DNA from: Escherichia coli 042
GTDB taxonomy: Bacteria > Pseudomonadota > Gammaproteobacteria > Enterobacterales > Enterobacteriaceae
NCBI RefSeq assembly: GCF_000027125.1
Contig: NC_017626.1
Direction: 5' to 3' (one strand)
Length of the DNA: 64,000 nt
Below, piece by piece: positions 23,995-29,736 of the stretch; positions within the stretch are counted from its first letter, which is position 1; each line of letters opens with the position of its first letter. The position numbers were made by a program, and so were the translations under genes. The notes beneath the pieces were generated by a model, which worked only from the letters and a program-made list of their open reading frames with translations, did not search any database and was not told the origin of the DNA.

Positions 23995-24828
23995 TTAACG
24001 CATATTCAGTTTATTGGCGTGGTAGGCAATATGCTCGCCAATAAAACTGGAGACAAAATAATAGCTGTGATCATAACCCTCGTGATAACGGATTAACGTC
24101 TTGATATTCATCTCCTGGCAGATCTTTTCAAGATTTGGAGTCCGCAGCTGTTCTGCGTAAAAATCATCACTCAACCCCTGATCAACCATTATTTCCGCAA
24201 CGCGTTGACCTTGTGAAATAAGGCTCACCGGATCGTAATCCAAGCACGCCTCTTTATTTTCACCAAGATATGCGGTAAAGGCTTGCTGTCCCCACGGTAC
24301 TTGCGATGGGGAGACAATGGGCGAAAACGCCGAGACGCTGACATATTCATCTGGGTTACGTAACGCCAGCACCAGTGCGCCCAGCCCGCCCATAGAATGA
24401 CCTGAGATAGACTTTCTGGCCGTTGCCGGAAAATGTTGCATCACTAAATCCGGCAGCTCGTTGTGGATATAATCATACATTTTGTAATGTTCATTCCACG
24501 GCGCTTGCGTTGCGTTCAGGTAAAACCCGGCACCTTGCCCGAGATCGTAACGGTCGGCATCTGCGACATGACTGCCTCGCGGACTGGTGTCTGGCGCAAC
24601 AACAATAATGTTGTGCTCAGCCGCGTAACGTTGCATCCCCGATTTAGTAATGAAATTCTGCTCGTTGCAAGTCAGCCCTGAAAGCCAGTACAACACCGGC
24701 AATTTTTCACTTGCGGCTTTTGGTGGGAGATAGACGCCGACATTCATTTCACATTTCAGTGATGGGGAATAATGCCGATACACATTTTGCCAGCCGCCAA
24801 AGCTGGCATGTTTTTCAATGAGTTCCAT
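23995..24828 (-). CDS. frmB: S-formylglutathione hydrolase
   Basis: 277-aa esterase with GHSMGG motif, downstream of frmA. Confidence 0.92.
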   Translation of the reverse strand: MELIEKHASFGGWQNVYRHYSPSLKCEMNVGVYLPPKAASEKLPVLYWLSGLTCNEQNFITKSGMQRYAAEHNIIVVAPDTSPRGSHVADADRYDLGQGAGFYLNATQAPWNEHYKMYDYIHNELPDLVMQHFPATARKSISGHSMGGLGALVLALRNPDEYVSVSAFSPIVSPSQVPWGQQAFTAYLGENKEACLDYDPVSLISQGQRVAEIMVDQGLSDDFYAEQLRTPNLEKICQEMNIKTLIRYHEGYDHSYYFVSSFIGEHIAYHANKLNMR

Positions 24829-24919: not shown

Positions 24920-26059
<1,140 letters not shown>

Positions 26060-26063
26060 TCAG

Positions 26064-26339
26064 CTATTTAAGATAGGCACGAACCAGTTCAATAGTGTCG
26101 TCAACGGATTGGCTGACTTCGCGGCTGTAGCAGTCATTTCGGTCAAACGTTTCCCGGATATGGCTTTCAAGCACTTCTGCCATCAGCCCGTTAGCCGCGC
26201 CCCGAACGGCAGCGATCTGTTGGAGTATGGCACGGCATTCGGCATCACCCTCCAGCGACCGTTCCAGAGCATCAATCTGCCCCCGAATACGACGAACTCG
26301 AGTAAGGACCTTTTTCTTCTCTTCCGGAGTACTGGGCAT
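26064..26339 (-). CDS. frmR: Formaldehyde-responsive repressor FrmR
   Basis: 91-aa protein [27 protein letters not shown] (CsoR/RcnR family). Confidence 0.92.
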
Positions 26340-26365
26340 TTCGCACCTCATCATCTGCACGCAAT

Positions 26366-26413
26366 ATACTATAGGGGGGTATGCTATATGTCAATGCATA
26401 CCCCCCTATAGTA
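26366..26413. promoter_or_regulatory. frmRAB promoter operator: perfect 19-bp inverted repeat
   Basis: atactataggggggtatgc - 10 nt spacer - gcatacccccctatagtat immediately upstream of frmR. Confidence 0.8.
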
Positions 26414-26455
26414 TATAACACTGGAGAATAAAATTTATCCGGTGAATGTGGTCGG

Positions 26456-26502
26456 AAAACAAAGAGGAAAGGGGGGGGCTAATCGGCAGGGAAGGCCCCC
26501 CC
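26456..26502 (-). terminator. Candidate rho-independent terminator of yaiO
   Basis: On the minus strand a G7/C7 stem (26471-26478 with 26496-26502) is followed by tttcctctttgtttt. Confidence 0.6.
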
Positions 26503-26524
26503 GGATAGCGGGCGGCAGAAGGAA

Positions 26525-27298
26525 TCAGAATTTCCAGGTCAGATGGGCTGCAAGTTGCAGACCGTTATAATCATCGGTTGGGGTGTCGTACCACACTTTA
26601 CCTGCCGTCAGCCCGAGATTAAGTTGCTCAGTCAGCGGTTGAATACGTTGCAGACTGACGCTCTTCATGCTGCCGTAGCGTGTTTCTGGCGTCCAGTCAT
26701 AGGTGTAAGCACCTGTTCCGCGGCTTAGCCATAGTTGCGTATAACCAGTGCCGCGCGGGTCATTCAGACGCACGGAAATCATATTGCTGTAACTACCACC
26801 TGCATCGCTGGAGTCATAATGGGTATAGCGATAGCTGGTGATCACCGGGCCAGTATAGAGGGATACGCCGCCTTGCCAGGCATCGACTTCGACATCATCG
26901 TAATATTTAGTGTAGCGATAACCGGTCGTGAAAAGCGTTTTTGGCAACAGTGCCAGGTTAATATCCTGACGAAAATCCTGGCGGGCAAAGACCGGCGTAT
27001 TATCCGCAAAGGCAATACCCGTTCGGGTTGTCAGCCAGTTATTCCATTTATACCAGACCGCACCCTGACCGCGAGTGGCATTGAAATGTTCAGTTTCATA
27101 ATCACGACGCCCCTGGGAAAGATTAAAAAGCAGCGTTGCGTTTTCAACTTTCGCCACCAGTTCAGCATACGCTAAATTACGGTTGCCATGATCGCCAGAA
27201 TAATCGGTAAAATCGTAGCCCGCGGTAATGGAAGTTAACCCGGCATAAGCGGGCAATGTGCTAAAAATTGCTGCCGCTAATAACGTCCGTTTTATCAT
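26525..27298 (-). CDS. yaiO: Outer membrane beta-barrel protein YaiO
   Basis: 257-aa ORF with signal peptide MIKRTLLAAAIFSTLPAYA, alternating aromatic/hydrophobic strands, C-terminal aromatic ...HLTWKF. Confidence 0.88.
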   Translation of the reverse strand: MIKRTLLAAAIFSTLPAYAGLTSITAGYDFTDYSGDHGNRNLAYAELVAKVENATLLFNLSQGRRDYETEHFNATRGQGAVWYKWNNWLTTRTGIAFADNTPVFARQDFRQDINLALLPKTLFTTGYRYTKYYDDVEVDAWQGGVSLYTGPVITSYRYTHYDSSDAGGSYSNMISVRLNDPRGTGYTQLWLSRGTGAYTYDWTPETRYGSMKSVSLQRIQPLTEQLNLGLTAGKVWYDTPTDDYNGLQLAAHLTWKF

Positions 27299-27299
27299 T

Positions 27300-28010
27300 T
27301 TAATCTCCTGTACGGATAAGTTCTTGTCGGAGTGAATAAGTTCCGGTAGGTAAATTACGTTCTACAATCACGCGCGGGCCAAGTTGCGTGTTCGGGGAAA
27401 TAATTCGCCCAGGCAAAATAATAACTTGTACACCAAGGCGTGAACGCTGCCCGATATAACAACCTAATTTATCGCATTCGGTAGCGATAATTCCCTCTGG
27501 AGTTCGAACAGATACGGGCTGTTGATCCAGACGATGATTACTGGTACGTACTTGTGCGCCCAAATATGTCTGGTTTGCAACTACCGAGTCGGCGATAAAG
27601 CATTGCGGACCAATCGTTGCTTCCGCTTCAATAACCGCATTTTTAATTTCGGTGGCAAAACCAATTTTTACGCCATTGCTGATTATTGTGCCAGGACGAA
27701 TAAACGCATAATTACCTATCAGGCAGTTTGCGCCAATCACTACCGGACCCTGAATAACGGCACCGTGACAAATACGGGTATTCGCGCCGATAACAACTTC
27801 ACCTGCAGTTTCATCAATAATTACCTGGTCTGCAATCTGAATATTTTTCTCTTTAACATTAAGCTTCAGAAAGTTTTTCAGTTCCTGTGACAGAAGGTTG
27901 GGAATAAGCGGTTGACGCTTCCACCAGTGCGGAATAGCGGGTGGGTTTGTCGCGCTGAGGTTCGCGTCCAGTAAAAAAGGCAATAAGTCCATAAATAATC
28001 CAGATGGCAT
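27300..28010 (-). CDS. yaiX: Hexapeptide-repeat (left-handed beta-helix) acyltransferase; start uncertain
   Basis: Repeated [LIV]-G-x-x-x-x hexads (VIGANTRI, VIGANCLIGN, IGPQCFIA); the ORF overlaps the yaiP 3' end by about 150 bp. Confidence 0.75.
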   Translation of the reverse strand: MPSGLFMDLLPFLLDANLSATNPPAIPHWWKRQPLIPNLLSQELKNFLKLNVKEKNIQIADQVIIDETAGEVVIGANTRICHGAVIQGPVVIGANCLIGNYAFIRPGTIISNGVKIGFATEIKNAVIEAEATIGPQCFIADSVVANQTYLGAQVRTSNHRLDQQPVSVRTPEGIIATECDKLGCYIGQRSRLGVQVIILPGRIISPNTQLGPRVIVERNLPTGTYSLRQELIRTGD

Positions 28011-29055
28011 AAGCTAATAATACATACACAACGGAAAGCGGTGCTAAAGGCACCAACAACCAGCAACGATGAAACCAGGCGCTAAAAGCACCAATAACAC
28101 AAACTACGCCGACCCAGATAAGCGGAAACATTGCCAACACCACACCATGCGGCCCGGTGGTAATGAATTCATTAAACCAGGTAGTGAGATAAATCCCAAC
28201 GCCATAAAGCACAACCAACAGCATAGGAAATATACTGAAGATACCGAAGCGGCTAAATAAAAGTCTTTTATGCAGGCGCATACAGACCGCGTAGCCCACA
28301 ATCCAACGCCGCCAGCGACGCCACTCCTCACGCGGGCTGTTGCATTCCTGTGGGTATACGATGCAGCGATTCGCCTGCCGAATACGGTAGCCGTTTGCCA
28401 CCAATGTCCAGGTGAGATCAAGGTCTTCGACTTTAGTACGATCCGAGAAACCGAACTTACGCAATACATCAGTACGGAACATCCCGCAGGCACCGCTGAT
28501 AATAAACGGTGCGCCGCCCACGAGCTGCTGTAGCGTGCGCTTCATAACAATCATCGGCAACTTTACGGTCGCGCGGATGTGTGGTAACAGACCCGCGCCT
28601 TTCAACGCAGTAGAGGGAATGCCGCCTACGGCATCGGCACCGCGCTCAATTTCTGCCAGCATATAGCCCATTCCGTCTTGATCGGGCGGAACATAGGTGT
28701 CGGCATCACTTAAAAAAACCTGGTCGCAGGTGGCGTAATTGAGGCCATTCATCAGCGCACCACCTTTACCGGTATTTTTTTGCGTGACGGCAACAAAGCG
28801 GTCGCCCCATTTGCGTTTGACTTCCTCCATGACCGATTCGGTATTGTCCGTGGAGCCGTCGTTTACGCAAATTACCCGGCAAAAATAAGGGTTACGCAGC
28901 AGATTATCCAGTGACTGTGCCAGACACGGGCCTTCGTTATAAGCAGGTATAATGGCGTCAATACAGCCTTTCTTTTGACTGGGTTTACGTTTTAGCGTAC
29001 TTAAAAACCATAGCAACATTGCTATGGACATACAGATAAATATCCAGGTTTTCAT
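27859..29055 (-). CDS. yaiP: Family-2 glycosyltransferase with integral membrane domain
   Basis: 398 aa; N-terminal TM helix, GT-A core (CVNDGSTD, SDAD, RWRRW), then several C-terminal TM helices. Confidence 0.85.
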   Translation of the reverse strand: MKTWIFICMSIAMLLWFLSTLKRKPSQKKGCIDAIIPAYNEGPCLAQSLDNLLRNPYFCRVICVNDGSTDNTESVMEEVKRKWGDRFVAVTQKNTGKGGALMNGLNYATCDQVFLSDADTYVPPDQDGMGYMLAEIERGADAVGGIPSTALKGAGLLPHIRATVKLPMIVMKRTLQQLVGGAPFIISGACGMFRTDVLRKFGFSDRTKVEDLDLTWTLVANGYRIRQANRCIVYPQECNSPREEWRRWRRWIVGYAVCMRLHKRLLFSRFGIFSIFPMLLVVLYGVGIYLTTWFNEFITTGPHGVVLAMFPLIWVGVVCVIGAFSAWFHRCWLLVPLAPLSVVYVLLAYAIWIIYGLIAFFTGREPQRDKPTRYSALVEASTAYSQPSVTGTEKLSEA

Positions 29056-29064
29056 GCAATTTGC

Positions 29065-29736
29065 TCAAAGAATCATTTTATGAATTACAAAGCCTTCACC
29101 CAGATCGCTATTGACCTGTTGCCCGCGAAATTGTGCAACTGCACGCAGGCGATCCGGGCGCATATAATCACGATGGCCCTGGCTCTTATGCTGTTTTAAT
29201 GCAGCCAGTTTAATGGTGAAATATTCTTCTTCCACGGATTCAAAAACCTGTGGCATAAATGAAAGCCAGGTACTTGGCGTTTCATAGCCGAGAATTTGCG
29301 GAATAGCGCGACAGGCAACCATTGAGGCTTGATAGACTGCAAGATGATCCTGATGGCGGTCAGCATCATGCATGGTGTATACACGAATGATTTCTACATC
29401 AGACGGAATTTGTTTTTTAAGGACATCTTCCAGAGCGGAAATCATATCATTAAGTTGTAAATGAGTACGGGTGTCAGCAAAATTAAAATGAATAGTTTGT
29501 TGACACCCCAAAATGTTTAATGCTTCGAGTGATTCTTGATGTCGATTAATTATTTCACTCACGCCGGAATTACCCGATGTCATCACTACCGCTGCAATAT
29601 AGAACCCTTTTTTTGCAAGACGAGCGAGCGACGCGCCACAGCCCAATTCTATATCGTCAGGATGTGCGCCAATAGCAAGGATACCCTTTCTTTTATTTGC
29701 CGAAGAAAGGATGGCTGAATCTAAAACCTTATCCAC
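29065..29736 (-). CDS. yaiS: LmbE/PIG-L-like N-acetylglucosaminyl deacetylase
   Basis: ORF with AHPDDIELGCG motif near the N-terminus and a later HxDH motif; AT-rich coding sequence. Confidence 0.8.
   Translation of the reverse strand: MDKVLDSAILSSANKRKGILAIGAHPDDIELGCGASLARLAKKGFYIAAVVMTSGNSGVSEIINRHQESLEALNILGCQQTIHFNFADTRTHLQLNDMISALEDVLKKQIPSDVEIIRVYTMHDADRHQDHLAVYQASMVACRAIPQILGYETPSTWLSFMPQVFESVEEEYFTIKLAALKQHKSQGHRDYMRPDRLRAVAQFRGQQVNSDLGEGFVIHKMIL

Follow-up and report, generated by a model that had tools for sequence, protein, structure and literature searches.

A perfect inverted repeat at the frmRAB promoter of Escherichia coli 042, the known FrmR operator, and a strain-variable G/C hairpin next to yaiO

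The perfect 53-bp inverted repeat upstream of frmR in E. coli 042 is the published operator-promoter of the frmRAB operon; it is already known and is not a discovery. The repeat was analysed within a stretch of 64,000 nucleotides of contig NC_017626.1, hereafter called the window, to which all positions refer. With a probability of roughly 0.93, we read it as the operator-promoter of an autoregulated operon that is repressed by FrmR and induced by formaldehyde, while a second G/C hairpin nearby belongs to the 3' end of yaiO.

The palindrome and the frm promoter

The intergenic region between yaiO and frmR measures 185 bp, and both genes are located on the minus strand. The relevant features of the locus are as follows.

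23995..24828, minus strand: frmB, S-formylglutathione hydrolase
24920..26029, minus strand: frmA, S-(hydroxymethyl)glutathione dehydrogenase
26064..26339, minus strand: frmR, 91 aa, first gene of frmRAB (NCBIfam equivalog, 189 bits versus a cut-off of 133)
Directly 5' of the frmR start, minus strand: GAGGTG, putative Shine-Dalgarno sequence of frmR, from its sequence
26364..26416, unstranded: perfect inverted repeat, Pfrm operator-promoter, with arms at 26364-26384 and 26396-26416; described for K-12 (Denby et al. 2016)
26366..26382, unstranded: frmR-proximal type I FrmR site ATAC-TATAGGGGG-GTAT, which occupies the -35/-10 spacer and shares bases with the -10
26398..26414, unstranded: frmR-distal type I FrmR site ATAC-CCCCCTATA-GTAT, which starts 3 bp upstream of the -35
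26389..26394, minus strand: -35 hexamer TTGACA (consensus), in the asymmetric spacer of the palindrome
26366..26371, minus strand: -10 hexamer TAGTAT, part of the proximal arm and separated from the -35 by 17 nt
26525..27298, minus strand: yaiO, gene of an outer-membrane beta-barrel protein, co-directional with and upstream of frmR

The palindrome is situated 25 bp upstream of frmR and consists of two perfect 21-nt arms (ATATACTATAGGGGGGTATGC at 26364-26384 and its complement at 26396-26416) separated by an 11-nt spacer, TATATGTCAAT. A first-pass annotation of this DNA had reported 19-nt arms around a spacer of 10 nt. The repeat is real and exact, and the 19-mer in question (atactataggggggtatgc at 26366-26384, with its exact reverse complement at 26396-26414) is a subset of the arms, which are 21 nt long with 11 nt between them. 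The G6 and C6 cores that had been assigned to the arms were located at 26374-26379 and 26401-26406, respectively. A repeat of this length is far from what chance would give: no other perfect inverted repeat in the 64 kb is as long, the runner-up having arms of 13 nt, and when the window was simulated 100 times with a Markov-1 model, the longest perfect arm measured 9-13 nt. Folded as a single strand, the palindrome reaches -37.5 to -38.8 kcal/mol, with a z of about -7, and none of 200 shuffled sequences was equally stable. G/C runs of at least six bases are depleted about 2.5-fold in the window (7 observed versus 17.4 ± 4.2 expected), and four of these seven cluster in an intergenic stretch of about 130 bp (within 26364-26502).

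Only one sigma-70-like site was found between 26000 and 26800, TTGACA-17-TAGTAT on the frmR strand (10/12), and it lies inside the palindrome. Judged from the sequence, transcription of frmR would start at approximately 26359-26361. Denby et al. placed the centre of the repeat at -29 from the predicted start, which, with the centre at 26390, gives a predicted start at 26361 (Denby et al. 2016; PMC5146963). The motif ATAC-N9-GTAT occurs in the 64 kb just twice, once in each arm, with 0.56 matches expected, and the two sites are 32 bp apart when measured start to start. Type I operators have been defined with a G/C tract (Denby et al. 2016; PMC5146963), and ATAC-N9-GTAT has been given as the FrmR motif there and in PMC11127321. 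In both arms a tract within the 3-8 bp typical of this type (G6 or C6) is central in the site and is bordered by ATAC...GTAT, an AT-rich inverted repeat. The site overlaps the promoter of the operon encoding a repressor of the CsoR/RcnR family, FrmR, and its architecture is kept upstream of homologous repressor genes. A G8 tract closer to yaiO was considered as a third FrmR site and rejected on account of its missing ATAC/GTAT flanks.

In K-12, the inverted repeat of Pfrm has been described as two type I FrmR sites in tandem (Denby et al. 2016, Sci Rep 6:38879, PMC5146963, Fig. 6a). Using BLItz, these authors showed the binding of FrmR to be specific, with a Kd of approximately 220 nM on Pfrm versus 3600 nM on a control promoter. 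Formaldehyde dissociated the FrmR–Pfrm complex, and transcription in vitro was blocked by FrmR and restored by formaldehyde. The earlier proposal of a FrmR operator over the frmRAB promoter is thus upheld by the equivalog match of frmR, the single promoter inside the palindrome and this published binding. The word 'footprint' occurs 0 times in the paper of Denby et al., and as the literature examined holds no footprint of E. coli FrmR, the assignment of contacts at the level of bases is indirect. We infer both the stoichiometry of FrmR at the E. coli promoter and its contacts at these exact bases, the latter from sequence analysis, modelling, half-site mutagenesis in Salmonella and site transplantation. 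The window allele would probably behave like that of K-12, from which it differs at two positions, both just outside the core sites. In 2024, it was reported that ATAC-N9-GTAT sites moved into promoter J23100 give FrmR-dependent repression, and that the frmR promoter loses repression by FrmR when it is cut just upstream of both sites (PMC11127321). Because of this loss, the two FrmR sites alone may not suffice. The truncation hints at a need for flanking DNA (26417-26460 in the window), perhaps for wrapping as in RcnR.

In the mechanism of the operon, each arm is one type I site of the CsoR/RcnR family, ATAC-N9-GTAT with G6 or C6. FrmR tetramers on both sites would cover the -10, the promoter spacer and the bases next to the -35, by which RNA polymerase would be excluded. 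Formaldehyde cross-links Pro2 to Cys35 between FrmR subunits through methylene bridges, and the ensuing remodelling of the DNA-binding surface of the tetramer makes FrmR leave the DNA, upon which frmR, frmA and frmB are transcribed. The Pfrm operator has since been reused as a biosensor part. A dissection of Pfrm by Sort-seq was reportedly carried out by Rohlhill et al. in 2017.

Of 5426 complete E. coli genomes, 5415 contain an 81-nt region with the palindrome, and in 2681 this region is identical to that of the window. The palindrome is intact in three upstream contexts, namely next to yaiO (about 79 % of the genomes), tauA or fbpC; the yaiO-adjacent context of the window is missing from about 21 % of the genomes. 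In ST131-type genomes (L006, L010), the yaiO-yaiX-yaiP-yaiS block (approximately 26443-29736) is absent and frmR adjoins tauA. The junction in these genomes is at about 26442, immediately past TTTATCCGG, with REP-like sequence beyond it. In O157:H7 (L008, NZ_CP035366.1), divergence into an fbpC island begins some 10-20 bp past the distal arm (about 26424-26436), leaving the palindrome untouched. Upstream of about 26424-26442, conservation between lineages ends, and the flank beyond the distal FrmR site differs completely among the yaiO, tauA and fbpC contexts. Substitutions in the 14 alleles fetched are mostly outside the core FrmR sites; in one strain the -35 reads TTGGCA, and the distal tract of the divergent strain PA11 reads CCTCCC.

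Within the block that ST131-type genomes lack, the ORF at the position of yaiX (27300-28010, minus strand) is intact in the window and specifies a hexapeptide-repeat acetyltransferase-like protein of 236 aa. As listed, it overlaps by about 150 nt with an upstream ORF for a glycosyltransferase-like protein of 398 aa (27859-29055, minus strand). The yaiX gene of K-12 is presumably broken by an IS element.

The hairpin next to yaiO

A second G/C hairpin had been noted near the palindrome as a G7/C7 structure. It exists, albeit with G8 and C7 tracts (26471-26478 and 26496-26502), and starts 55 bp beyond the palindrome.

26471..26502, minus strand: G8...C7 hairpin, candidate stem of a weak yaiO terminator, 23 nt downstream of the yaiO stop codon
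26454..26470, minus strand: T-rich tail TTTCCTCTTTGTTTTCC, directly after the hairpin

The stem can be drawn as 8 perfect base pairs (GGGGGGGC/GCCCCCCC) with a 15-nt loop or as 10 bp at 90 % with a loop of 12 nt. On the minus strand, the tail begins with UUUCCUCUUUGUUUUCC, which has 5 U in its first 8 nt and is interrupted by C; longer G tracts insert extra C between stem and tail. The hairpin would mark the 3' end of the yaiO unit rather than form part of the frm promoter and may weakly terminate yaiO.

None of the 5426 genomes contains an exact match to the hairpin region of the window, the best reaching 99.0 %. The best match over 281 nt differs from the window at one base, 26498, which is C in the window and G (giving CCGCCCC) in every other allele fetched. 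By this comparison, the C at 26498 is apparently a private SNP or a sequencing error. As this base is private to the window, so is the perfect G/C stem, and a perfection that comes down to a private one-base variant calls for caution in inferring function from one strain. The G tract itself varies widely. Among alleles that were each verified by sequence, G7 was found in L003, G8 in L004 and L014, G9 in L005 and G10 in K-12 and others, while UTI89 has GGGGATAGGGG and PA11 has GGGAGTGGGG. In 30 evenly spread matches, alignment spans of 99, 100, 101, 102 and 103 nt were all well represented.

The window allele (C7) has a minimum free energy of -19.4 kcal/mol, with a z of -1.6 in 55 nt and of -0.55 in 91 nt. 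For the common CCGCCCC allele, -12.2 to -12.6 kcal/mol was obtained (z -0.2 to -0.5). None of the five alleles folded was significantly more stable than its shuffled versions, and the centroid was nearly unfolded in two of the four sequences of the common allele. A consensus terminator scan over 26000-26800 returned 0 sites; the hairpin is missed by it because of its loop of 12-15 nt, the short loop of an intrinsic terminator being about 3-8 nt.

With regard to the role of the G8/C7 region, we would put at even odds that it has no dedicated function and is G-rich intergenic DNA that drifts by slippage and is hit by an IS110-family element by chance. The broad polymorphism of the G tract, the lack of significant structure and the private nature of C7 all agree with drift, as do the dispensability of the whole segment in about 21 % of the genomes and the presence of ISEc20 within the G tract in some of them. 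On the other hand, G/C runs of at least six are depleted window-wide, yet cluster around the hairpin and the operator, and no fetched allele with yaiO varies in the 5' arm of the hairpin (GGGGCGGCC) or in its loop.

ISEc20, a member of the IS110 family, lies inside the G tract of L009 (NZ_CP025903.1) and L012 (NZ_CP027461.1), at the equivalent of 26471-26478. Its left junction reads ...AAAGGGGGG|TGCCCC and its right junction ...AGTAAC|GGGGGCTAATCGG. The location of these junctions in the G tract suggests that the tract or the hairpin is the specific target of the element.

That the hairpin and its tail form a functional intrinsic terminator of yaiO, insulating the frm promoter from read-through, is a tentative reading with the odds somewhat against it. 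The first-pass annotation had taken the structure for this terminator, and its position just past the yaiO stop, the strand and the U-containing tail accord with that view. The hairpin is, moreover, lost along with the yaiO block in ST131-type genomes (junction at about 26442), and no other terminator-like site is present between yaiO and frmR. The scan, the folding and the private C at 26498 speak against it. The stem is G+C-rich, but its loop is longer than the short loop expected of a terminator, and the hairpin is neither more stable than its composition predicts nor maintained across strains: the perfect stem occurs in the window alone, and the CCGCCCC allele folds at about -12.3 kcal/mol with an internal mismatch. 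The variation also affects one arm only (G7-G10, GGGGATAGGGG, GGGAGTGGGG) and is uncompensated. A literature search on a yaiO terminator yielded nothing relevant; yaiO was met there as a PCR marker.

Other readings of the palindrome

It is highly improbable that the main role of the palindrome is that of a hairpin in RNA or DNA (terminating or attenuating yaiO read-through, or forming a cruciform) and not that of a protein site. In favour of a hairpin, the single strand folds very stably (-38.8 kcal/mol, z of -7), and any read-through from yaiO would transcribe it. However, the palindrome is upstream of the inferred frmR start and hence absent from frm mRNA, no U tract follows it and it is intact where yaiO is absent. 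Furthermore, plasmid-borne and distant homologues keep the site motif but not the hairpin potential (L016, L017 and L019 have a single site each), and direct binding of FrmR has been published (Denby et al. 2016; PMC5146963). A search of Rfam at a permissive E-value gave matches to miRNA precursors only (20-27 bits, compared with gathering thresholds of 73-139), which are artefacts of the perfect stem.

Homopolymeric tracts at this locus had also been predicted to be prone to slippage and to differ in length between strains. This holds for the G tract of the hairpin, in which G7-G10 are common. It hardly holds for the G6 and C6 of the operator, in which such changes amount to about 0.5 %, and does not apply to the 'C7' of the hairpin, which is CCGCCCC elsewhere. 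Length variants of the operator were sought by searching synthetic alleles with tracts of ±1 base against all genomes, and records of at least 99 % identity were counted. The proximal tract was G7 in 13 records and G5 in 8; the distal tract was C7 in 6, three of them full-length and exact, including strain 536, and C5 in 4. Together, these alleles come to about 30 of some 5400 genomes (about 0.5 %), and some may be homopolymer sequencing errors. No change in the length of an operator tract was seen in the 30 evenly spread matches or in the 14 alleles fetched. In E. coli 536 (L021, NC_008253.1, 151-232), C7 replaces C6 in the distal tract.

The comparison of tract lengths across strains, which had been proposed as a check, thus separates a variable hairpin G tract from operator tracts that are six bases long in about 99.5 % of the genomes. 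The former is outside any ORF or promoter spacer, whereas the nearly invariant proximal G6 is inside the -35/-10 spacer. The constancy of the operator tracts agrees with the proposal that a defined G/C tract is required; as longer tracts slip more readily, the contrast with the hairpin tract is not attributable to selection alone. We consider it extremely improbable that G6 and C6 serve as contingency (phase-variable) tracts, with changes in their length tuning the expression of frmRAB: a change of one base in the proximal G6 would shift the promoter spacing from 17 bp to 16 or 18, and rare alleles of this kind (G7, G5, C7, C5) do exist, but they stand against 2681 exact matches of the window type and were not encountered among the evenly spread or fetched sequences.

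One genome carries a flipped spacer. In FJ_Ec_21 (L007, NZ_CP143627.1, 325-357, equivalent to 26380-26400 of the window), the 11-nt spacer is inverted, compared with every other genome, together with the K-12-type mismatch in the inner arm. TTGACA is then on the opposite strand and, combined with the TAGTAT of the distal arm, makes a 10/12 promoter that points away from frmR, leaving only a 9/12 site facing frmR. Both arms hold a -10-like TAGTAT and the -35 is present in the spacer only, so that an inversion of the spacer would re-point the 10/12 promoter; because of the symmetry of the operator, the direction of the promoter is set by 11 nt. The allele was found in a single genome as a full-length exact match and is therefore not a common polymorphism. 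It may represent a real inversion by template switching or an artefact of assembly. We give next to no credence to the palindrome being a miniature invertible promoter, in which the perfect arms would recombine, or allow template switching, and thereby flip the spacer. If the flip were true and recurrent within populations, it would constitute an on/off switch for formaldehyde detoxification. As a lesser variant of such an idea, the G7-G10 polymorphism of the hairpin could tune read-through into the frm promoter.

Comparison with known systems

The closest counterpart of the FrmR operator in the window is Pfrm of K-12 (Denby et al. 2016; PMC5146963), which is the same element at the same locus, with identical G6 and C6 tracts, spacer and core sites. 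At the equivalent of 26383, directly outside the proximal core, K-12 carries T where the window has G, and there is another change near 26361. The former renders the repeat of K-12 imperfect, whereas that of the window is a perfect 21-bp repeat. Denby et al. give a distance of 31 bp between the centres of the FrmR sites; the distance here is the 32 bp measured start to start.

The frm promoters of E. coli and Salmonella have been aligned previously (PMC4528141; PMC5016687). That of the frmRA operon of Salmonella Typhimurium also has a C6 tract and a T/A-rich inverted repeat upstream of frmR (Osman et al. 2015, 2016; PMC4528141, PMC5016687), and it is likewise bound by FrmR tetramers, with formaldehyde weakening the binding. 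Two tetramers bind per Salmonella probe, and mutating one of the T/A-rich flanks abolishes binding (Osman et al. 2016; PMC5016687). It differs in that the 33-bp probe to which the two tetramers bind contains one C6 tract and not two inverted sites, and in that the Salmonella operon is without frmB.

The rcnR-rcnA promoter of E. coli (Iwig and Chivers, as cited in Denby et al. 2016) is the target of a repressor from a paralogous family and is described there as having tandem TACT-G6-N-AGTA sites. According to the same account, the centres of the RcnR sites are 19 bp apart, in contrast to about 32 bp for those of FrmR, their flanks are different and the effectors are Ni and Co instead of formaldehyde. 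A homologue adjacent to rcnA in Ralstonia has ATACTCCCCCCTAGTAT.

Plasmid-borne homologues of frmR were found by BLAST, among them frmRA operons of Enterobacteriaceae. In one example, the frmRA genes of plasmid pKOX101_3 of Klebsiella michiganensis (L015) specify a FrmR that is 90 % identical, and they are preceded by two inverted ATAC-N9-GTAT sites, ATACTATAGTGGGGTAT and ATACTCCCCTATAGTAT, at a nearly equal distance to the start codon. The G tract is interrupted in this case (GTGGGG, G4). The repeat has arms of 25 nt that are 88 % identical, around a 17-nt spacer with TTGATC where the window has TTGACA. Upstream of a more distant plasmid FrmR (L016, 53 % identical), a single TATAGTATA-G6-TATACTATA site is present that is comparable to the one of Salmonella. 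Single G/C-tract sites with AT-rich inverted flanks characterise the more distant homologues L016, L017, L019 and L020.

In conclusion, the palindrome of E. coli 042 matters little as a discovery, as the operator of this well-studied formaldehyde sensor has been published. What the population view adds to the known system is that this operator is preserved in each of three unrelated upstream contexts, with a longer G tract close to it drifting freely.
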